Source of the DNA: Pseudomonadota bacterium
GTDB lineage: Bacteria > Desulfobacterota > Binatia > UBA1149
Assembly: GCA_014382245.1 (NCBI GenBank)
Contig: JACNKC010000077.1
Span: 7,395 to 71,394 of the forward strand
Direction of reading: 5' to 3'
Length of the DNA stretch: 64,000 nucleotides
A model generated the notes under the pieces. It did not search any database, had not been told where the DNA came from, and was given only the letters and a program-made list of their open reading frames with translations. Within the stretch, counting starts at the first letter, position 1. Each line of letters begins with the position of its first letter. Position numbers and translations under genes: made by a program. Below are positions 6,385 through 53,515 of this stretch, in pieces.

Positions 6385-7065
6385 GTGACCTGGGGCGTAA
6401 TAGTTTTTCCTGGTTCCAACGATGATCGGGATACCCGGCGCGTGCTCGCGGATGTGATGGGCGCCAAGGTGCGAATGCTCTGGCACAAGGACACCGACCT
6501 CAAGGGAGTGGACGCGATCGTTTTGCCGGGTGGATTTTCTTACGGCGACTACCTCAGGGCAGGAGCCATCGCCAGGATCTCGCCCGTGATGGAAGAAGTT
6601 TCTCGATTTGCGAACGCAGGCGGCCCGGTGCTCGGAATCTGCAACGGCTTCCAAGTGCTATGCGAAGCAGGACTGCTGCCCGGCGCCCTCATACGCAACA
6701 GCGGCCTGCGCTTCGTTTGCCGGGATGAGCCGATCGAGGTTGCGAACACCGCGACCGCGTTCACCGCTTCCTGCTCGGGCGGCGAGGTTTTGCGCATCCC
6801 GGTAAAACACGGCTGCGGTTGTTATGTGCTCGAGAAAAACAGGCTCGAAGAACTCGAAGGACGAGGCGGGGTTGCCTTTCGTTACGCGGACACGGCGCCA
6901 AACGGCTCGGTTAACAACATAGCGGGCGTCTGCAACGAGCGCGGTAACGTTGTTGGGCTGATGCCGCACCCTGAGCACGCCGTCGATCCTGCTCTTGGCT
7001 TGGTGGATGGGCGCGTCTTGTTTGAGTCGGCCGCGGACTGGGCCGTTAACGGTGTAGCCGCGTGA
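6385..7065 (+). CDS. purQ: phosphoribosylformylglycinamidine synthase glutaminase subunit PurQ
   Basis: It has a class I glutamine amidotransferase fold (GGFSYGDY..., ...MPHPEH). Start is GTG 6385. Confidence 0.9.
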
Positions 7066-9320
7066 TTCACGGCAGCGACAGGACCATAGATGAAGCCCTG
7101 GCTGCCGAACACGGCCTCAGCGCTGAAGAATACGCGGCCATACTAGAGCATCTCGGGCGCACGCCGACGATAGAAGAGTTGGGCGTATTTTCGGTGATGT
7201 GGTCCGAGCACTGCAGCTACAAGAGTTCGCGGGTGCATCTCAAGAGGTTTCCGGTCTCGGGTCCGGCGGTGCTGCAGGGGCCTGGTGAGAACGCTGGAGC
7301 CGTGGACATCGGCGGTGGGATGGCTGCTATCTTCAAGATCGAGAGTCACAACCACCCCTCTTACGTCGAGCCCTACCAGGGGGCGGCGACAGGCGTGGGC
7401 GGAATACTTCGGGACATTTTCACCATGGGCGCGAGACCTGTGGCTAACATGAATGCCCTGTTTTTCGGCGAGCCCGAAGACGAACGCACCTCCTACCTCC
7501 TTTCCGGCGTGGTCTCAGGCGTAGGCGACTACGGCAACAGTGTCGGTGTGCCAACCGTTGGCGGGCAGGTCAACTTCGACGCCGCTTATAACGGCAACAT
7601 ACTCGTCAACGCTTTTTCGCTGGGCATAGCCAGGGCCGACAACATCTTCAGCGCGGTAGCGAGCGGCGAAGGAAACCCGGTACTTTACGTGGGCTCGCGC
7701 ACCGGTCGTGACGGTGTTCACGGCGCCAGCTTGCTCGCATCCTCCGAGTTCAAAGAAGAATCAGAGCAGATGAAGCCCACCGTGCAGGTAGGCGACCCCT
7801 TCGCAGAAAACCTCCTGATAGAGGCTTGCCTCGAAGTACTCAAGGGCGATGATGTGGTGGCTATACAAGACATGGGTGCCGCTGGCTTGACGAGTAGCTC
7901 GGCCGAGATGGCCGGTCGGGGCGGAGTGGGCATTTCTCTTGACCTCGACAAGGTTCCGCTACGCGATTCTTCGGTGAGTCCTTACGAAATACTGCTGTCG
8001 GAATCGCAGGAGCGAATGTTGCTCGTTGCCAGGCAGGGACGCCAAGGGGCCGTCGCCGAACTCTTTTCTCGCTGGGACCTCGAGTGCGTTGAAGTAGGAG
8101 TCGTCACCGGTGACGGAAGGTTGCGTGCGAGCTGGCGTGGCGAAGAGATACTCTCTATCCCCGTTGCTGCGCTTACCGACGACGCCCCCGCTTACCAGCG
8201 CCCAATCAAAGAACCAGCCACCCGGCCAGTCAGTAGTGGAGGGGTGCTCGGCGATGGTGAACTCTGCGAACCGGCTTCCGTGTTGTTGGAGATGTTGGCT
8301 TGTCCGGAACTTTGCAGCCGACGCTGGGTTTTTGAGCAATACGACTCCTGGGTAGGGGCCAATACCGTGATCCACCCGGGTGGCGATGCCGCCGTGATAA
8401 GGGTGGCCGAAACGGGTGCTGGACTGGCGATGACAGTGGATTGCAATCCTAACTACGTGGCAAGCGATCCATACCTGGGCGCCCAACACGCAATAGCCGA
8501 GGCGGTGCGAAATATATCAGTCACCGGCGCGACACCGCTCGCGGTGAGCGACTGCCTGAATTTCGGGAGCCCCGAAAAGCCCGAGGTGATGTGGCAGTTC
8601 AGCCAGGCGGTCGACGGGATGGCAGCAGCCTGTCGTCATTTCTGCACGCCGGTTATCTCGGGCAACGTGAGCTTTTATAACGATACTCGGGGCGAATCGA
8701 TCCCGCCGACGCCGGTGATCGCAATGGTCGGCCTGATGGCCGATTCAACCACTGCGGTGGGCTGTGCGGCCATCGGCCAAGGCCGCAGGATTTATCTACT
8801 CGGTGGCGGTGTGGCAACTCTTGAAGGCAGCGTTTTCGAGCGCCTTTACGCCAATAACCCCGTGGGTGGGGTACCCGCACTCGATCTCGATGCCGAGAAG
8901 GATTGCTCGGCTTTGTGCGTGGACCTGGTCCAGCAGGGTCTCGTCACCGCAGCCCACGATCTGTCGGAGGGCGGCTTGGCTGTCGCCCTTGCCGAGATGG
9001 TTGTACAGGAGGGCTCATGCGGCATTGTCGCCCGGGTACCCGATCATGGCCGCCTGGACAGTTCCATGTTCGGCGAGAGCGCTACGCGAATCCTGGTTGT
9101 TGTTGAAGCTGGGGATACAGATGCCGTCGAAGCTGCGGCATCGGCCAGCGGCGTGCCCTGTCGATTGCTCGGCGAAACCGGCGGCGATCGTTTCCGCCTG
9201 GAGCGCGACGGTGAGACGGGTGAGCGGCTGCTCGATCTCGAATTGGCACAGCTACGGGCAGCCCGCGAGCAGACCCTACCGACGATCGCTGCAGGCCTGA
9301 AGGATTTTGAAGCGGCATGA
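7062..9320 (+). CDS. purL: phosphoribosylformylglycinamidine synthase subunit PurL (FGAM synthase II)
   Basis: 752 aa with AIRS-like domains. The start GTG 7062 overlaps the purQ TGA (GTGA). Confidence 0.93.
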
Positions 9321-30504: not shown

Positions 30505-30591
30505 GCCGGGATGGCGGAACTGGTAGACGCAGGGGACTTAAAATCCCCTGGGCGTAAGCCCGTCCGGGTTCAACTCCCGGTCCCGGCACCA
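30505..30591 (+). tRNA. tRNA-Leu (anticodon TAA)
   Basis: 87 nt with a long variable arm. Acceptor GCCGGGA / TCCCGGC, then A, then CCA. Anticodon loop CTTAAAA in a GGGGA/TCCCC stem. Confidence 0.85.
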
Positions 30592-30600
30592 TTATTTCAA

Positions 30601-30985
30601 TGACTGACTGGACTTCCCCCGGTTCTGTGGACAGAAGGATGGTATGCCCCGGGTTTCCCGGAGTCCGATTATTGGAATTTGGTGCTGCTCTCCATAGGAG
30701 GGCACCATGGGCAGACGGGGATATACATCGGAGTTTCGGCGTCCCGTACTCGAGTTGATCGGTACCGGGCGACCAGTGCGAGAGGTCGCCGGCGATCTCG
30801 GGATCAGCGAGCAGACGATCTACACGTGGAGGCGCCAGGATCGGATCGACCGGGGGTTGGAGCCGGGCCTGGCCTCGACCGAGCGTGCAGAATTGGTCGC
30901 CGCCCGAAAGCGTGTGCGCGAGTTGGAGACCGAGCTGGCAGTGCACCGACGCGCAGCCGAGTTGCTCAAGGAGAAGGCCCGCCCA
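30601..30985 (+). mobile_element. IS3-family insertion-sequence remnant (left end plus orfA only)
   Basis: A putative left inverted repeat TGACTGACTGGACTTCCCCC sits at 30601-30620, directly after tRNA-Leu. The 30707-30983 ORF encodes an IS3 OrfA-like HTH/leucine-zipper protein (MGRRGYTSEFRRPVLELIG...DLGISEQTIYTWRRQDRIDRG...RKRVRELETELAVHRRAAELLKEKA). There is no orfB and no right inverted repeat. Confidence 0.6.
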
Positions 30986-31621
30986 AAAGCAGGTACGCGG
31001 CAGCAGCCATACTCGGAGGCATTGTCAGGCGATCCGGCAGCTGATGGCTACGTGCTGCTGGTGGATCAGAAGGGCCCACGTATTGTAGCCGACAACATTG
31101 CACTCACCAACGAACTTCGAATTGATCCGACCGGGCAGTACCTCTACCTTGCTGAGTCGATGGCGAGCCGTATCCTGCGATTTCCGATTCTGGAAGATGG
31201 AGGCCTCGGTGAGAGAGAGATTGCCGGCCCGGATGTGTTCGGCCCGGCTGACTGGCCAGACGGTATCGCATTCGATGCCGAAGGTAACCTCTGGATTACA
31301 TTTTTTACCACCAATGAATTGAAGATATTAACGCCCGGGGGTGACGTACATACGGTTTTCAGTGACCGGCAGACTGAGGCCGTTGAACTCGTGGCCAGGG
31401 AATTCGCTGCGAGAGACATGTCCATCCCGGACGTGTTTGCCTGTGCCGGTCCACGCGTCGGACTGTGCGCCAGCGTAAATTTTGGTGGCCCGGACCTGCG
31501 AGATGTCTACATCGGTTCGCTGGCCATGGACCGGGTACTCACGTTTCGCTCACCCGTTCCCGGTCATCCCATGCCGCATTGGAATCGGTATATTAATATG
31601 GAGAAAACCCCGGTGGCGTAA
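30986..31621 (+). pseudogene. 5'-truncated SMP-30/gluconolactonase/LRE-like gene fragment
   Basis: The C-terminal SGL motifs DGIAFDAEGNLWIT and GGPDLRDVYIGS are present, but the N-terminal roughly one-third of the family is missing. It is read in-frame with the IS3 orfA fragment as a single 304-aa chimeric ORF (30707-31621). Confidence 0.55.
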
Positions 31622-44112: not shown

Positions 44113-45225
44113 TCAGTTCTCCTGCGAAAAACCCGTCCGTCCCTCACCGGGAGGCGCGAGGTCGAGAAGCCCGGCCAAAAGATTAGTGCAGGTATTATTC
44201 AGCTCGAAAGCGTAGCCAGCGGCTTCATCCATCAGCTCGTAGCGCACCAGTTGTTGAGAAATCCGCATCATGATCACCGAAAATCGAAAACCCGCAAACA
44301 CCTCCCAGTAGTGGAGGTCTCCCAGTTCTCTGCCCGCGCAGCGCTGGTAGTATTCAAGCGATTCTTCGTAGGAGCAGAAACCCTCGAGCCGCGGGGTAGA
44401 GATGCCCTCGCTGTGATGACGGTCCAGGAAGATACCCCAGGCCACGTCCTGCTCCGCGGTGCCGATGCAGGCCATCTCCCAGTCGAGTACGGCGGCGGGG
44501 CGACAATCGTCATCGAAAATAACGTTGCCGATACGGGCATCTCCCCAGGACACAACGGGGTGATCAACCGCTGGGGCGTTCTTTCGTAACCACTCACGGG
44601 CCACCTCCACTACTGGTTGCTCTCGGCCGCGCGAGGCCCAGTGAAAAAAATCATCGTAGTTGTCCAGCTGTGCCTGCAACACGTCCGATGAGCCAGCACC
44701 CGCGAGAAAATCGAAGCCCATGTTTTTCCAATCGAGACTGTGCACCCCGGCCATGCACTCAAAGCCCCCCAGCCATACCTGGTTGCGTTCTTTCGGCGAG
44801 AGTTCATGCAACCAGCCTTCGCTGTGGTAGGGCGGGTTATCACCAGGGACACGGCCTTTTACGTGTCGCATCACGTAAAACGGAGCGCCGAACACCGACT
44901 GGTCGTCGTTTTCGGTCCACAAGACCGACGGCACCGGCACCGGGCTATCGGCGAGCTTTTGCATACACAAATATTGCAGCGAGAGGTCGTAGTCCGGAAA
45001 CACAGTGAAGCCTTGTGGCTGAATGCGTACAACGCAGCTTTCACTCTGCCTGCCATCGTCCCAGGTGACATCGCAGAGCAGCGTGTCGTTCGAGAAGCCA
45101 GAAGAAGCGGGCGAAACGAGTTCACTCACTAACAGTTTTTGGGGGCGATCCAGCTTGCGATCCAGCCAGCCATAAAATTGCGCCCGGTCTCGGTCGAGAT
45201 CTCGCTGCCACATGGTCGGCATCGC
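44113..45225 (-). CDS. phosphotransferase family protein (APH/choline-kinase-like fold)
   Basis: Brenner/catalytic region ...VVSWGDARIGNVIFDDD...AVLDWEMACIGTAEQDVAW. The start is uncertain (ATG 45225 or 45216; ORF-track start 45276). Confidence 0.72.
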   Translation of the reverse strand, partial: AMPTMWQRDLDRDRAQFYGWLDRKLDRPQKLLVSELVSPASSGFSNDTLLCDVTWDDGRQSESCVVRIQPQGFTVFPDYDLSLQYLCMQKLADSPVPVPSVLWTENDDQSVFGAPFYVMRHVKGRVPGDNPPYHSEGWLHELSPKERNQVWLGGFECMAGVHSLDWKNMGFDFLAGAGSSDVLQAQLDNYDDFFHWASRGREQPVVEVAREWLRKNAPAVDHPVVSWGDARIGNVIFDDDCRPAAVLDWEMACIGTAEQDVAWGIFLDRHHSEGISTPRLEGFCSYEESLEYYQRCAGRELGDLHYWEVFAGFRFSVIMMRISQQLVRYELMDEAAGYAFELNNTCTNLLAGLLDLAPPGEGRTGFSQEN

Positions 45226-45235
45226 GGTAGCTTCC

Positions 45236-46039
45236 TCAGCGGTCCCAGGCGATGTTTTGACCCCACGAGGAGCCAAGCATCGCCGCCGGCGTGTTCTTGT
45301 TTATGTGGCCGATAAGGCCGCCGTAGATTCCGTATCCCACGAGTTCCTGCAAGCGCGGATCAAAGTCGCGCACCCTCTCCCGGGGAATGCCCAGTTGTTG
45401 GTTTTCCTGCTGCCGTATGTAGCCGGCACAATAGTTCATGGCGACCCCCAACCTGGCCCCATCGCTGGCGTTACGTCCACCACCGTGCCACATGGAACCG
45501 TTCCACAGCAACACGTCACCCCGCTTCATTTCCGCGGCAACGGTTTCAAGCGGGACGCCGTACTCCGGAACGTCCTCGCGCAGGTGAGAGCCCGGTATGA
45601 TACGAGTGGCCCCGTTCAGCTCGGTAAACTCGGTCAGTGCCCACATGGTGTTACAGACCAGGGCCGGGTGGGGACGCGCAATAGGAATGAGCTGGTCATC
45701 GGCGTGCAGGGGTTGGGCTAATTCACCGGGTAGTATTTTGATCGACGACAAGGACGACACCAGGCAGCCGCTGTCGAGGACGCCTTCAACGACAGGCAAC
45801 ACGGCTGGGTGTACTGGTATTTTCTCAAAAACCGGGTCAAGGGCCAGCAAGTTGTAGATTCTCAGCGTGTTGACACCTTCGAAATCGTTACCGGCGGGCT
45901 CGACAGATAATTCCTTCTCGAGGCGGCTGACGGCGGCTTCAATTTCGTCTATCAACCCTGGATCAACCGAGTCTTCAACAACGGTGTAACCCTGCTTTTC
46001 TACCCTCGCGAGGTGCGCAGCTATTTCGGTTTCGCTCAA
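45236..46039 (-). CDS. phytanoyl-CoA dioxygenase (PhyH) family Fe(II)/2-oxoglutarate oxygenase
   Basis: PhyH motifs ...PLHADDQ... (H-x-D), ...IIPGSHLRE... and ...GSMWHGGGRN. The proposed start TTG 46039 overlaps the TGA of the DIO-like gene (TTGA); GTG 46087 is an alternative. Confidence 0.75.
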   Translation of the reverse strand: MSETEIAAHLARVEKQGYTVVEDSVDPGLIDEIEAAVSRLEKELSVEPAGNDFEGVNTLRIYNLLALDPVFEKIPVHPAVLPVVEGVLDSGCLVSSLSSIKILPGELAQPLHADDQLIPIARPHPALVCNTMWALTEFTELNGATRIIPGSHLREDVPEYGVPLETVAAEMKRGDVLLWNGSMWHGGGRNASDGARLGVAMNYCAGYIRQQENQQLGIPRERVRDFDPRLQELVGYGIYGGLIGHINKNTPAAMLGSSWGQNIAWDR

Positions 46040-46785
46040 CTGGCCACTGCCTGTTCGCGAGAATAGGAGGAGATAGCCTCTTCCCACTCGGCCGGTAGGA
46101 AGAACATGGGACCGGGCCCGCTCTTGTAAACCACGCTACCGTCCAATCCGACCAGCGCCAGGCGTTCGGGAATCGCGTTCCACGCGTTCGATACGGCATT
46201 GTCCATGCCATCAACGAGGGCTGGCGGCTCAAGCGCGGTTTGTAACATGCACGCCTGGCCAGCGTCTATCCTCTGGTCGATGCTCGTGGGTTGGGTAAAA
46301 ACTACACCGTCTGCAAGGTTCTCGTCCACCTGCCAGCCATCGCTCGGGTGAATTTCCTTGATGTAAACAACGTAAAAATCGACCTGGTCTTTCCAGCGAC
46401 GGTAGATCTCGTTAACGGCACCAGCCTGGTACCGGAAGGGCGGTCAAGTGTAGCTGCCAAAAACGAGAGCGACCGGCCGTTTGCCGAAATGATCTGAGAG
46501 GGTGACCGCCGGACCGTCCTTGTCGTTGAGCCGAGCGAGAGTGAAGTCAGTCGCAGCCTGTCCGGCCTGCAGCGATCCCGGCTCGGCCGCCATGGATTCG
46601 GTCAGGTGCTGGGCCGACAGGGGATTCTCCATCGCCGCGGCCAAGCGCCCCCAGCCTTCTTCGCCCAGCTCTGCATCTACGGCCTTGAAATTGAGTCCCT
46701 GCTGTTCTGCCAGGGCCTGGACCAGTTCCCGAATTTTTGCTGTTTCCATGGGGCCTAATCTGAGACAGGGGTCGGCCTCTTGCAA
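46036..46785 (-). CDS. iodothyronine-deiodinase-like thioredoxin-fold selenoprotein (in-frame UGA = selenocysteine)
   Basis: Two same-frame ORFs (46444-46785 and 46036-46329) are separated only by TGA 46444-46446. Reading through gives ...KRPVALVFGSYT-U-PPFRYQAGAVNEIYRRWKDQVDFYVVYIKEIHPSDGWQV...VDGMDNAVSNAWNAIPERLALVGLDGSVVYKSGPGP..., collinear with the vertebrate deiodinase core (FGSxTUPPF; VYIxEAHPSDGW; DRMDN...YG; GGKGP). The start is TTG 46785 or ATG 46749. Confidence 0.72.
46416..46434 (-). other. candidate bacterial SECIS hairpin downstream of the UGA
   Basis: The mRNA reads UGA-CCGCCCUUC-[CGGUACC-AGGCU-GGUGCCG]. This is a 7-bp stem (one G-U pair) with a 5-nt loop, starting 10 nt after the UGA, within the positional window of bacterial SECIS elements. 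Confidence 0.4.
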
Positions 46786-49410: not shown

Positions 49411-50160
49411 TCAGGTGAACAGGTCGTCTTCGGGCGGCCGAAGGAGCTCAATGGCACTGCCGGCACCCAGTTCGGCGCCGCTACCTCGCACCAGTACGGC
49501 CGGCACTCCAGCATCCTTTTTCATGGCAATACCGGCTGCGGCAGCCAGCTGGTCGGCGACCGCGAGGGATGTGTGCTCGAGGGTTCTTCCCGTCCAGTCA
49601 CGGCCGCCCTCCCTGTTGTCGACGGGCAACAAGCCCGCGCAGCCTATGGCCAGGTCGATCTGCCCCAATCTCCAGGCGCGGCCGAAGGTATCCGAAATGA
49701 TCACGCCGACCTGCGCTTCGTAGTGGACAGCAAGCCGCGACATCAGTCGGAGCGCCGACTTGTCCGAATCTTCGGGCAGGAGGGTAGCGTCGCCCTCGAC
49801 GGCCTGGTTTGAGCAGTCAACGCCCGAGTTGGCGGCAACAAAGCCGGGACCGGTGCGAGTGATGAGATGCCCGTCCTTCTTGCGCAGGATTTGGCTCGCT
49901 TCGAGTAGCGCCAGCTCTACGACGGCCGGGTCCTTATCGTGCGCATTGGCAAACTCAAGGGCCTCGTCCGAGGGCTCGACCTCGGACAGCTTGCGTACCC
50001 TTCCTTCGGCCCGTGACACGACCTTCTGGCATACGACCAGGACGTCGCCGGATTTTACGCCGACCTTCTGCTTGTCGATAGCATCGATGAGCAAGGCGGC
50101 GAGATCGTTCCCAGGCAGGACCATGGGGACGCCTTCGATGGGTATCAACATGGTTACCAT
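49411..50160 (-). CDS. cofE: coenzyme F420-0:L-glutamate ligase
   Basis: 249 aa. ...GVKSGDVLVVCQKVVSRAEGR..., ...VAANSGVDCSN... and ...IISDTFGRAWRLGQIDLAIGCAGL match the F420_ligase family (PF01996). Confidence 0.8.
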   Translation of the reverse strand: MVTMLIPIEGVPMVLPGNDLAALLIDAIDKQKVGVKSGDVLVVCQKVVSRAEGRVRKLSEVEPSDEALEFANAHDKDPAVVELALLEASQILRKKDGHLITRTGPGFVAANSGVDCSNQAVEGDATLLPEDSDKSALRLMSRLAVHYEAQVGVIISDTFGRAWRLGQIDLAIGCAGLLPVDNREGGRDWTGRTLEHTSLAVADQLAAAAGIAMKKDAGVPAVLVRGSGAELGAGSAIELLRPPEDDLFT

Positions 50161-50161
50161 T

Positions 50162-51130
50162 TCAGCGTTCCGTCCCGCCGAGCGGTATCTTCAAGAGAAA
50201 CCGCGCGAGTGCCAGCGAACGCCGCTTACTATTCAGCAGGGTGTTGCGCTCAAGCAGGCGGGGCCAGGTGGCTTCAGGCCGCCGTGGTGCGTCCCCGGGC
50301 GAAACGACCAGCGACGTCGCGAGGCCCTCGTAAAAGTCTGCTATGCCAGCGCTTCCTCGACCCGCACCAAGGCTTTTCATCATAGCGACCAAGGGGCCCT
50401 TCACCGCCCGACCATTGACCAGTGGACTGACCGCAATGGTCTTGCGGCACACGGCCCCCAGCGCTGCGCGTAGACCCGGAATCGCAAGCATGGGCGCAAT
50501 GCTTACGTAGGGGTTGCTGGGAGCGATTATTACCTTGTCGGCCGATGCCAGGGCCTCGCTGACCCCGGGCGCCATGCTGGCCCCGGACGCGCCCTTGTAA
50601 GTGATGCCGTCCACCCTCGGGCGGGCGCCTTGCTTGACGAACCACTCCTGGAAGGCAAAACGGCGTCTACCCGACCTGAGCACGGTACGCACCGGGTCGT
50701 TGCTCATGGGCAATACCGAGGTCCGAATACCCAGTTGTGTGCAGATTCGCCGGGTAGCCTGGGCAAGAGAGGAGCCCTCTCTCAACAAGTGGCTACGGTA
50801 AATGTGAAGGGCGAGGTCCTGGTCGCCAAGCGAGAACCATTGGTCACCGAAATAACGACCCAGCCAGGGCAGGGCGTTCCGGGTATCGCCGCGTATACCC
50901 CAGCCCCTCTTGATCGGGGCAAGCCCGGCCAGTGTGTACGCCACCGTGTCGAGGTCCGGAGATACCTGCAGTCCATAAAAACTCTCGTCGTCTCCCGTGT
51001 TGACGATCACGGTCAACCTGCGGGGATCAACGACTTCAGCGAGTCCCCTAAGGAGTCGGCAGGCTCCCACTCCACCCGCCAGCAGGGTGATTCGTGGGTT
51101 GGCCGGCAAGGCGTCCATCATCGCTTTCAT
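50162..51130 (-). CDS. cofD: 2-phospho-L-lactate transferase (LPPG:FO transferase)
   Basis: ...ITLLAGGVGACRLLRGL...VIVNTGDD... matches the CofD/UPF0052 N-terminal motif. The annotated start overlaps the cofH 3' end by about 80 nt; the real start is unresolved. Confidence 0.78.
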   Translation of the reverse strand: MKAMMDALPANPRITLLAGGVGACRLLRGLAEVVDPRRLTVIVNTGDDESFYGLQVSPDLDTVAYTLAGLAPIKRGWGIRGDTRNALPWLGRYFGDQWFSLGDQDLALHIYRSHLLREGSSLAQATRRICTQLGIRTSVLPMSNDPVRTVLRSGRRRFAFQEWFVKQGARPRVDGITYKGASGASMAPGVSEALASADKVIIAPSNPYVSIAPMLAIPGLRAALGAVCRKTIAVSPLVNGRAVKGPLVAMMKSLGAGRGSAGIADFYEGLATSLVVSPGDAPRRPEATWPRLLERNTLLNSKRRSLALARFLLKIPLGGTER

Positions 51131-52304
51131 CCAACAGCTCGTACAGGGTGTTCCGTTGCCGGGGTTCTCTACCCCGCGACATGATCATGCTCCTGAGTTC
51201 ATCGGCCGAAGTGTACTCTCCTGAATCCGCACCCGCTTCGCGCGAGATGCTCTCTTCCATCAGGGTGCCGCCAACATCATTGCAACCCGCGTCGAGACTC
51301 AGGGTTGCCAACTCGCGACCGAGCTTGACCCAGGAACTCTGCAGGTTATCAACCAGCCCGTCCAGCATCAGTCGGCTGGTTGCGTACACGGCTATGTCGA
51401 GACGCCCCTGTGGCACCGGGGATACCAGGCCCTCGGCGTAAAGCTGGGTGTTCTGCCAGATAAAACGCAAGGGTACGAACTCGCTGAGTCCACCGGTGTT
51501 GCGCTGGATGCCGCGCAGTACCTCGATGTGTTCGGCCATGTGCCGCGGTGTTTCCAAGTGGCCGTAGAGCATGGTGGAGGTCGTAGGCAAACCCACCTCG
51601 TGGGCGGTGGTCACGATCTCTATCCAGCTGTCGGTGTCGAGCTTGTCGTGGGTAAGGACCTTGCGGATCTCCGGGTCAAAAATTTCCGCGGCGGTACCGG
51701 GCATGGTATTCAACCCCGCTTCGAGGAGTAGCTCGAGATACGGCCGGTAGGCCAGGTTCATTCGATGGGCGCCGTACTGGATCTCCATCGGCGAAAACGC
51801 GTGAATATGAAGGTCGGGGTAGGCCCCGCGCACCGCTCGGAGCAGTTGCAGGTAGCCGTCGTCGGGCATAACCGGGTTGAGTCCACCCTGCATGCATACC
51901 TCGGTAGCTCCCAGCGCCACGCCCTCGCCGATACGGTGGAGAACGTCAGAGACATCGCGGTCGTAAGCCCGGGGACTGTTCTTGAGGTGGGCGAAGGAGC
52001 AGAACTTGCAGCCCACGAAACAAACGTTAGTCCAGTTCACGTTGCGGTTGATGACATAGGTCACCGTATCGCCTACCGCGCGCCGCCTCAGCTCGTCGGC
52101 GACTCCCACGAGGGCGGCCAGCGAATCGCCTTGCAAAGCAAACAGCTCGCTAGCCTCGTCTACGGTCGGCGCTCGGCCGGCCAGCGAACGCTCGAGGATG
52201 GCCGCCAGGCCGGGCGGAGTGGCCGCCAGGCGGTTTTCGAGATCCCGCTGGTCCGCAAAGAGGTACTCGACTCTCTCGGGTGACTGTTCGGTCTGGTAAC
52301 TCAC
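51048..52304 (-). CDS. cofH: FO synthase subunit 2 (7,8-didemethyl-8-hydroxy-5-deazariboflavin synthase), radical SAM
   Basis: CFVGCKFC radical-SAM cluster motif and the CofH-type C-terminal domain. It is a gene separate from cofG. Confidence 0.83.
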   Translation of the reverse strand: MSYQTEQSPERVEYLFADQRDLENRLAATPPGLAAILERSLAGRAPTVDEASELFALQGDSLAALVGVADELRRRAVGDTVTYVINRNVNWTNVCFVGCKFCSFAHLKNSPRAYDRDVSDVLHRIGEGVALGATEVCMQGGLNPVMPDDGYLQLLRAVRGAYPDLHIHAFSPMEIQYGAHRMNLAYRPYLELLLEAGLNTMPGTAAEIFDPEIRKVLTHDKLDTDSWIEIVTTAHEVGLPTTSTMLYGHLETPRHMAEHIEVLRGIQRNTGGLSEFVPLRFIWQNTQLYAEGLVSPVPQGRLDIAVYATSRLMLDGLVDNLQSSWVKLGRELATLSLDAGCNDVGGTLMEESISREAGADSGEYTSADELRSMIMSRGREPRQRNTLYELLDESDDGRLAGQPTNHPAGGWSGSLPTP

Positions 52305-53515
52305 AGGGTTGCACCCCCCTGGGCCGTGATCGCCGCGGGCAGCTCCGCAAAGCGTTCAACCGCCAATCGCATGTCAGGATCCAGGAACTCGTCGTTCACG
52401 TACTCAGGATAAACCGGCAAGCGGGGCTCGAGTTCGAAACCCAGCCCGGAACAGGTCTGCGCCAGGTCTTCTAGATGAGGCCAGGGGTCGCCGGGGTTAA
52501 CGTAGTCCGCGGTCACCGGAGAGATGCCACCCCAATCGTTTATACCGGCATTAACCAGGCGCGCGTGCCCCTGGGGGCTGAGGTTGGGCGGTGCCTGGAT
52601 GTTCATAGCTGGTCCCAGGATCAGGCGGGCGATCGCCACGCAGCGTATGAACTCGTCTTCTGTCGGTTCCGGAAATCCGCTCATCGGCGTGGAGTCCTTG
52701 TGCCTGAAGTTCTGTATGATGACTTCCTGCAGGTGACCGTACTGCTCGTGTAATCGGCGCAATTCGAGGAGGCTCGCGATTCTTTCAGCCTCGGTTTCAC
52801 CAATGCCCACGAGGATGCCGCTGGTGAAGGGTATCCGGAGCTCGCCCGCGTCGGCGATCATGCTGACCCTTGCCGCCGGATCCTTGTCGGGCGCAAACTG
52901 GTGAGGCATTCCTCGTGCGCGCAAACGGGGGCTGACATTCTCGAGCATCAAGCCGAAGCTCACGTTCAGCGGTCGCAGGTTGCGCATCTCATCGTGCGAG
53001 AGCAGCCCCGCGTTGGTGTGCGGCAGCAGATCTGCTTCGAGGGCCAGCGAGCAGGCAAGGCCCACGTACTCGGCCGTGCTCGCGGCTCCCCATCGTTCGA
53101 GCTCGGCACTGAACCCGCGAAAAGCGATCTCGGGTTTGTCGCCAAGGCACATGAGGGCTTCTATGCAGCCGGCTGCTTTACCCCGTTCAGACCACTGGCG
53201 GATCTCGTCAGGGGTCATGGTCCATTCGCCTGCCTCGCCGGGATCCCGGCGAAAGGTGCAGTACGTACACCTGTCCCGGCATAGATTGGTCACAGGGAGA
53301 AAGACCTTCGGGGACCAGGTGAGCACTCGGTCCCGATCGCGGTCGCGCTGCCGGCAGGCCAGCTCACAGATTTCTGCGGTCAGGGACCACTCGCGGTCGC
53401 CGTCAGCACTCCCGCGGGGACTGCCAGCGTGCAGAAGGGCATAAGCATCGTCGTCGCCCAGGCGCTCAAAAGCGCGGGCCCTGGCGAGCGCCCTGTCTAG
53501 AGGATTACCGACCAT
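52301..53515 (-). CDS. cofG: FO synthase subunit 1, radical SAM
   Basis: Motifs ...VFLPVTNLCRDRCTYCTF... The start overlaps the cofH start region by 4 nt. Confidence 0.83.
   Translation of the reverse strand: MVGNPLDRALARARAFERLGDDDAYALLHAGSPRGSADGDREWSLTAEICELACRQRDRDRDRVLTWSPKVFLPVTNLCRDRCTYCTFRRDPGEAGEWTMTPDEIRQWSERGKAAGCIEALMCLGDKPEIAFRGFSAELERWGAASTAEYVGLACSLALEADLLPHTNAGLLSHDEMRNLRPLNVSFGLMLENVSPRLRARGMPHQFAPDKDPAARVSMIADAGELRIPFTSGILVGIGETEAERIASLLELRRLHEQYGHLQEVIIQNFRHKDSTPMSGFPEPTEDEFIRCVAIARLILGPAMNIQAPPNLSPQGHARLVNAGINDWGGISPVTADYVNPGDPWPHLEDLAQTCSGLGFELEPRLPVYPEYVNDEFLDPDMRLAVERFAELPAAITAQGGATL

Follow-up and report, generated by a model that had tools for sequence, protein, structure and literature searches.

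In the mechanism established for Escherichia coli and Moorella, selenocysteine (Sec) is delivered as Sec-tRNA(Sec) to a ribosome holding UGA, with the involvement of the C-terminal winged-helix domain of SelB. The determinants for SelB in the selenocysteine insertion sequence (SECIS) of E. coli fdhF are G23/U24 and a bulged U17. The present work concerns a 64,000-nt stretch of contig JACNKC010000077.1 (the window, meaning this whole stretch), in which a hairpin at 46434..46416 of the minus strand follows an in-frame UGA of a deiodinase-like gene. This hairpin is very probably the bacterial SECIS (bSECIS) in the mRNA of a deiodinase-like selenoprotein. Bacterial selenoproteins of this kind, together with predicted SECIS elements, were described from four marine sequences of the Sargasso Sea in a study according to which bacteria are not expected to contain thyroid hormones (Zhang, Fomenko & Gladyshev 2005, PMC1088965). 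The family is listed among the prokaryotic selenoprotein families in a 2026 review, which also describes the signal of eukaryotic deiodinase mRNAs as a kink-turn SECIS in the 3' untranslated region (UTR), read by SBP2 and eEFSec (PMC13188914).

The locus shares with the Sargasso Sea selenoproteins the domain PF00837, Sec at the catalytic position, and the existence of homologues with cysteine (Cys). Its hairpin, likened to the Sargasso Sea SECIS by description and not base by base, also lies directly downstream of the UGA and has a G in a small apical loop. The difference is the host, which here is Candidatus Binatia/UBP10. The catalytic domain of the vertebrate enzymes Dio1-3 is homologous, and their Sec lies at the same place in GS-x-T-U-PPF, whereas their signal lies in the 3' UTR and that of the window is a coding-region hairpin. 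The locus is a Binatia member of a selenoprotein family and bSECIS known since 2005; it is ordinary and involves no new mechanism. Results of the present analysis are the covariation of the stem, the evidence from synonymous sites, and the family consensus A-GG-Y-U. The gene and the parts of its signal are listed below, with the basis of each assignment; columns are those of the family alignment.

46749..46036, minus strand: deiodinase-like selenoprotein gene, 237 amino acids including the predicted Sec102 (read-through translation, Pfam, orthologues)
46446..46444, minus strand: in-frame UGA, predicted Sec102, in the motif FGSYT-U-PPFR (homologue alignment)
46435..46443, minus strand: 9-nt spacer CCGCCCUUC from the UGA to the hairpin, codons Pro-Pro-Phe (direct sequence reading)
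46427..46434, minus strand: 5' arm of the hairpin, CGGUACCA, columns 13-20 (RNAfold and pair counts)
46424..46426, minus strand: apical loop GGC, columns 21-23 (base counts across the family)
46416..46423, minus strand: 3' arm of the hairpin, UGGUGCCG, columns 24-31 (RNAfold and pair counts)
46418..46432, minus strand: family-conserved 15-nt SECIS core, columns 15-29, 6 bp and triloop (compensatory changes, RNAalifold)

Around the UGA, the mRNA (minus strand, 5' to 3') reads UUU GGC AGC UAC ACU UGA CCG CCC UUC CGG UAC CAG GCU GGU GCC GUU AAC, and the spacer (alignment columns 4-12) encodes an invariant PPF. The hairpin 19-mer, CGGUACCAGGCUGGUGCCG, occupies nt 10-28 past the UGA at 46434..46416 and pairs as CGGUACC-AGGCU-GGUGCCG, with 7 bp including one U-G pair, just as a preliminary description of this DNA had given it. 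That description counted a 5-nt loop. The AGGCU is present, but RNAfold adds an A20-U24 pair, which leaves a GGC triloop on 8 bp, with a free energy of -10.9 kcal/mol for the hairpin alone and -11.9 kcal/mol with short flanks. The stem had also been said to start from nt 10, at the canonical distance of about 11 nt. The distance holds for the family-conserved core (46432..46418), which begins 11 nt past the UGA, whereas the window-specific extension begins at 9-10 nt. The outermost C13-G31 pair (46434/46416) is found in just 2 of 78 sequences and is a clade-specific extension of the stem.

Like the SECIS of E. coli fdhF, the hairpin is part of the coding sequence and follows the UGA directly, and its conserved core starts at the same 11 nt. 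The distance from the UGA to the loop is 18 nt in fdhF (GGUC, columns 22-25) and 17 nt in the window (GGC, columns 21-23). According to the preliminary description, the loop differs from that of fdhF; this is correct insofar as a GGC triloop stands against a GGUC tetraloop, but the resemblance is closer than claimed, with CA-GGC-UG in the window and CA-GGUC-UG in fdhF. There are further differences. fdhF has a single bulged U on the 5' side, the window has no bulge, and many relatives have a single-nucleotide bulge on the 3' side. The lower helix leading back to the UGA in fdhF is absent from the window, which has a longer and more stable upper stem (-11.9 kcal/mol, against -4.2 kcal/mol for the 17-nt fdhF minimal element). 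The element is a minimal hairpin at about 11 nt, and it lacks the GGUC tetraloop with G23 and U24 and the bulged U17 of the fdhF type. It is fdhF-like in geometry and in the CA-GG motif only, and by sequence it does not belong to that type.

The gene starts with the ATG at 46749..46747, which was placed by orthologue comparison, and ends with the TGA at 46038..46036. Two mechanically called open reading frames (ORFs) of the minus strand, 46785..46444 and 46329..46036, are merged by the UGA into a single frame of 237 codons, and the read-through translation is uninterrupted except for the UGA at codon 102. The product matches PF00837 (T4_deiodinase) with E=7.4e-27 and 94.6 bits against a cutoff of 27, and its catalytic residue lies in GS-x-T-[U/C]-PPF. 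The NCBIfam model NF038285 (deiodinase_rel) scored 174 bits against a cutoff of 250, over positions 131-340 of its 347 only; the product has a relationship to this family but does not belong to the equivalog. The nearest solved structures are the catalytic domains of Dio3 (4TR3, E=1e-20) and Dio2 (9H48). The UGA codon aligns exactly with the catalytic Sec, crystallized as Cys, of these mammalian enzymes in GS(C/A)T-C-PPF; FGSCT-C-PPF corresponds to FGSYT-U-PPF in the window. For an N-terminal extension of about 60 residues (residues 1-60, 46749..46560, minus strand), beginning METAKIRELVQALAEQQGLNFKAVD, Pfam gave no match. Its alignment is confined to the C-terminal two-thirds of NF038285, and it is kept in the Binatia orthologues.

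A genome scan returned three orthologues (L001-L003) in metagenome-assembled genomes of Candidatus Binatia/UBP10, which are 92, 87, and 63% identical in amino-acid sequence. Each of them shares the start and the TGA codon of the window gene, and the protein is conserved on either side of this codon. L001 and L002 share synteny with the window over cofE, metallophosphoesterase, bioB, the selenoprotein gene, and APH, at about 89-91% DNA identity; the window is therefore from a Binatia bacterium. Their DNA is almost identical to that of the window at the hairpin, which makes them uninformative for covariation. In addition, a metagenome scan was carried out with the post-Sec protein alignment only and the pattern F[YF]x[VI]YIxE[AI]H; the best 80 matches were taken, and all were Sec-type. 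The pattern sits downstream of the catalytic codon, and therefore the scan did not select for TGA. Among the 84 relatives comprising all loci with a findable motif, 83 have TGA at the catalytic codon and one (L028) has TAA. More distant homologues have Cys at the Sec position (P0001-P0004, P0008, and others). TGA in the relatives together with Cys in distant homologues is the classical Sec/Cys signature.

The UGA could instead be a true stop, in a pseudogene or a split gene, or a codon read as a standard amino acid through reassignment or read-through, and no SECIS would then be needed. The public records of some relatives agree with this. P0005 and P0021 start right behind the UGA and, as checked in the DNA, are the C-terminal parts of Sec genes cut in two at this codon; P0028 has the same truncated form in its protein record, and its DNA could not be read; P0006 has W at the Sec position in the protein record and TGA in the DNA. 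L028 with its TAA and L021 with an extra stop point in the same direction. Against these cases, the frame and the protein similarity carry on across the UGA in 83 loci of many lineages, and the codon aligns with the catalytic Sec/Cys. Moreover, TGA is the normal stop of 23 of the 34 window genes, the deiodinase-like gene included; therefore, TGA is not reassigned genome-wide, and stop-codon reassignment was ruled out. A stop or a standard amino acid at this codon is next to impossible. These results confirm that the TGA at 46446..46444 should be annotated as Sec, with the gene annotated as a single selenoprotein of 237 aa, not two fragments or a pseudogene. The public protein sets mis-annotate the deiodinase-like family, in which the UGA either breaks the protein into fragments or appears as W.

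Three records of this set deserve separate mention. The TAA of L028 (L028:90-92) stands in place of the TGA at the Sec codon, and L021 carries another in-frame stop, located two codons before the UGA (L021:868-876, GS*T*PPFR); each may be a pseudogene or a sequencing error. P0007 has R at the Sec position, as given in the protein record.

The comparison of relatives provides strong evidence for an RNA element. A gapless alignment of 48 nt from the UGA onward, in codon register, was made from 78 distinct Sec-type sequences. In stem columns 13-20/24-31, 71.2% of the cells were standard pairs, compared with 47.0% in shuffles, and both sides had changed in 146 cells, compared with 70 (each 0/500 shuffles). 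The covariation score was 0.523, compared with 0.165 in shuffles (0/500), and it dropped to 0.06-0.30 when the 3' arm was slid by 1-3 nt. Compensatory stem changes, which the preliminary description had proposed to look for in orthologues, were found at pairs 15-29, 16-28, 17-27, 18-26, and 19-25, each with 24-33 sequences that carry double-sided changes. C-G to G-C flips occur at four consecutive stem pairs; at pair 18-26, 40 sequences have C-G and 31 have G-C. The RNAalifold consensus independently returned pairs 16-28 to 19-25. There are 33 distinct 15-nt cores, with at least eight different stem sequences in the same register, for example GCCCA/UGGGC, CGGGA/UCCCG, GCGGA/UCCGC, GCUCA/UGAGC, UACCA/UGGUG, UCCCA/UGGGA, UCGGG/CCCGA, and CGGGC/GCCCG.

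The apical motif A-GG-Y-U, composed of the GGC loop and its closing A-U pair, is conserved across the family. Among 79 sequences, A20 is present in 71, G21 in 75, G22 in 73, and U24 in 60, and column 23 is a pyrimidine in all (C in 43, U in 36). The encoded peptide over the hairpin varies (RYQAGA, RAQAGT, RAEAPL, RREVPA, RSGVPE, RAQVER). It is not conserved, and therefore the RNA is what is kept. Synonymous variation that destroyed the pairing without compensation had been named in the preliminary description as grounds for rejection. The opposite was found: in 53 of 76 sequences, where 29 were expected (0/10,000 permutations), column 29 is the pairing partner of the third base of the Arg CGN codon (column 15). 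Of 79 sequences, 59 use GCU or GUU as codon 8, even though in the window genes GCU makes up 17% of the Ala codons and GUU 20% of the Val codons. In a recoding analysis of the window, 6,144 synonymous encodings of R-Y-Q-A-G-A-V were weighted by the codon usage of 29 long window ORFs. Only 0.8% of them were as good as the observed hairpin by local minimum free energy (MFE) and 0.4% by eight in-register pairs; therefore, the hairpin is no by-product of the protein sequence.

A stem that arose by chance, or was driven by the protein in a GC-rich coding sequence, with covariation produced by Q-A-G versus E-V-P co-variation and shared ancestry, must be considered next to these counts. The window has 60% G+C, the folding z-scores of the hairpin in context are unremarkable, large clades share their stems by descent, and 27% of codon-order shuffles pass the bSECIS filter. 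Such an origin is nevertheless extremely unlikely in view of the preference for pairing at synonymous positions (the Arg third base and the U-ending codon 8), the 0.4-0.8% of recodings that equal the hairpin, and the variety of cores and stems kept in register.

The bSECIS model of bSECISearch (Zhang & Gladyshev 2005), as summarized in the 2026 review, comprises a loop of 3-9 nt, an upper stem of 4-16 bp, a UGA-to-loop distance of 16-37 nt, an MFE <= -7.5 kcal/mol, and a G in the first two loop positions in the pattern N1-G-[G|U]-N-N2, with N1:N2 paired (PMC13188914). In the window, the in-frame UGA aligns with Cys/Sec of the homologues, and the loop and stem lie within the limits, either as a GGC triloop on 8 bp or as AGGCU on 7 bp. 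The loop sequence A-G-G-C-U with A:U paired fits the pattern, and the distance of 17 nt and the MFE of -11.9 kcal/mol are both within range. The preliminary description had called the hairpin SECIS-like at the canonical distance and had proposed a bSECISearch-type model as a check; its view is supported, as the hairpin agrees with the four published constraints on loop length, loop G, distance, and MFE. Among the Sec-type sequences, 53 of 79 pass with ungapped stems only and 75 of 79 when bulges are allowed; the ungapped failures are the same hairpin with a one-nucleotide 3' bulge. Of the controls, 27% of codon-order shuffles and one of six Cys-type genes pass. Because more than a quarter of the shuffles pass this permissive generic model, passing it is necessary but weak evidence.

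The six Cys-type genes (L087, L088, L089, L090, L092, L093) served as the control set. Compensatory changes are present in the Sec-type sequences, and the hairpin is lost in the Cys-type genes, with L087 as the one exception. Of the 8 in-register pairs, only 2-3 remain in L088, L089, L092, and L093, and 6 in L090, the fold of which differs. The hairpin exists, is selected at the RNA level, goes together with TGA at the catalytic codon, and has the features of a bSECIS.

A covariance model (R1) was built from 74 Sec-type sequences with six stem pairs, the window and L001-L003 being left out, and was compared with a sequence-only twin (R2). One match was obtained over the whole element.

46399..46446, minus strand: full match of R1, 50.4 bits, E=2.6e-13

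This element is the only significant R1 match in the 64 kb on both strands. It scored 29.8 bits with R2, and the stem therefore adds about 20 bits to its score. The next-best match in the window scored 9.0 bits with R1 and 12.3 bits with R2. The held-out L001-L003 scored 48.7-53.2 bits with R1 and 28.3-34.7 bits with R2, and the unused Sec-type L094 scored 61.9 and 43.6 bits, respectively. Among the Cys-type genes, L087 scored 54.4 bits with R1 and 41.5 bits with R2. The other five scored 15.1-23.8 bits with R1; with R2, L093 scored 12.5 bits and the rest were not listed at E<=10.

Several observations weigh against the hairpin as a bSECIS. The first group concerns folding. The hairpin alone (19-27 nt) has a z of about -3 against dinucleotide shuffles, 1-4 of 200 of which fold equally well. 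In contexts of 41, 47, and 61 nt, z against dinucleotide shuffles is -1.05, -0.35, and +0.39, and over 61 nt a competing long-range fold has the lowest energy (-14.2 kcal/mol). RNAfold, which the preliminary description had suggested as a check, thus returned the expected local hairpin of 8 bp and a different fold over 61 nt. The experimentally validated fdhF SECIS of E. coli, the sequence of which was confirmed in genes annotated as fdhF in 5,419 of 5,426 E. coli genomes, has a z of -1.33, no better than the window. Because this validated element is equally unremarkable, the folding z was dropped as a criterion. Thermodynamics by itself is not significant and decides nothing.

The second group concerns the relatives and the databases. 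The pair counts are numbers of sequences and not of independent evolutionary events, and the 78 sequences fall into few large clades. L003 breaks two central pairs of the register given in the preliminary description and can form only a bulged alternative of -8.5 kcal/mol, which retains the same loop and spacing. This break was first taken as a possible refutation; in light of the bulged alternative and the wider family, it is not one. The Cys-type L087 (TGC; L087:607-654, protein P0001) retains the hairpin base for base as GGGCCCA-GGC-UGGGACCC, and therefore the hairpin is not strictly tied to TGA. Rfam gave no match on 46350-46500 even at E<=10, and a scan of the whole window at the Rfam gathering threshold returned four tRNAs only, with no match to a SECIS model. 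Neither a tRNA-Sec nor selA, selB, or selD was found in the 64-kb window by a tRNA scan and Pfam scans of 40 ORFs.

The competing fold raises the question of whether the UGA encodes Sec and the functional SECIS is another structure, either a longer-range fold or a downstream-shifted hairpin, the observed stem being a by-product. In addition to the different 61-nt MFE, this would be in line with about ten relatives that have a hairpin shifted by 3 nt, with a CG[G/U]GC loop and 20-nt spacing, and with the 60-nt MFE folds, of which only 39 of 79 include the core pairs. However, the long-range pairing relies on the RRWK codons, which are specific to the clade of the window and not conserved. The covariation peaks at the proposed register and falls with a slide of at least 1 nt, RNAalifold gives the same core, and the structure raises the covariance-model score as described above. 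Another structure as the functional SECIS is very unlikely.

L087 bears on a different possibility, in which the mRNA structure is conserved for some other purpose (pausing during translation, stability of the mRNA, or folding of the protein as it is made, for example) and lies next to the UGA by coincidence. The exact hairpin of this Cys-type gene would fit such a role, as would the fact that the SelB interaction is here a prediction. In contrast, five of the six Cys-type genes fail the bSECIS test and score 15-24 bits, compared with at least 49 bits for the Sec-type, and the distance, the loop size, and the conserved GG closely match the bSECIS model. L087 is the closest Cys-type relative, and its peptide RAQAGTLNEI is the same as that of the Sec-type L009, which is consistent with a recent switch. 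L087 is probably the product of a recent Sec-to-Cys switch with a fossil SECIS, and another role for the hairpin is very unlikely.

A bSECIS at this position would act by analogy with fdhF. When UGA102 is in the ribosomal A site, the hairpin core, 11 nt downstream, would lie just outside the mRNA entry channel, and its apical A-GG-Y-U would be bound by the C-terminal winged-helix domain of SelB carrying GTP and Sec-tRNA(Sec). SelB bound to the hairpin would tether the ternary complex to the ribosome, and the UGA would be read as Sec and not as a stop. The resulting enzyme would have a thioredoxin fold, with Sec in its catalytic position. SelB binding and Sec incorporation are predictions from this analogy, and selA, selB, selC, and selD would be expected elsewhere in the genome.

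A minority of the Sec-type relatives (about ten, among them L005, L027, L038, L044, L046, L058, L073, and L085) have a hairpin shifted about 3 nt downstream. It spans about 18-36 nt past the UGA and has the stem CAGGC/GCCUG, the loop CG[G/U]GC, and a spacing of 20 nt. These shifted hairpins suggest SECIS turnover inside one gene family. A broader proposal, for and against which the odds appear even, is that the family has its own SECIS subclass. It would consist of an A-U-closed GGY triloop exactly 17 nt past the UGA on a stem of 5-8 bp, often with a one-nucleotide 3' bulge. The need of the RNA would dictate residues +6 to +9 (Q-A-G exchanged with E-V-P through C-G to G-C flips), at least one replacement by the 3-nt-shifted hairpin with the CG[G/U]GC loop would have occurred, and the element would persist as a fossil after the Sec-to-Cys switch, as in L087. 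If this is true, the family would be a compact natural system for the study of SECIS turnover and of constraint on the coding sequence.

The locus implies the use of selenocysteine by the poorly known candidate class Binatia (UBP10); in the one paper found on Binatota and this subject, the term occurs in the reference list only. The alignment also provides a comparative bacterial SECIS data set of about 80 sequences, which combines covariation and selection at synonymous sites with a contrast to Cys-type genes and could become a family-specific covariance model for annotation.

The neighbourhood of the selenoprotein gene contains genes of several functions. bioB lies directly upstream, at a distance of 65 nt. 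A gene of a PhyH-family dioxygenase (PF05721; ORF 45236..46087, minus strand) lies just downstream and represents an insertion of about 800 bp (45223..46026), which is absent from the otherwise syntenic L001 and L002, where APH follows after about 48 bp. A few kb upstream, a run of genes for coenzyme F420 biosynthesis (49411..53515, minus strand) encodes F420-0:gamma-glutamyl ligase, CofD, a CofH-like protein, and a further radical-SAM protein. An AIRS-domain protein at 7062-9320 is PurL and not SelD. Directly after a tRNA-Leu gene (30505..30591), an ORF on the plus strand (30707..31621) combines the N-terminus of a transposase (HTH_Tnp_1) with an SMP-30/gluconolactonase region; gene fusion or disruption at an integration site may be the cause.

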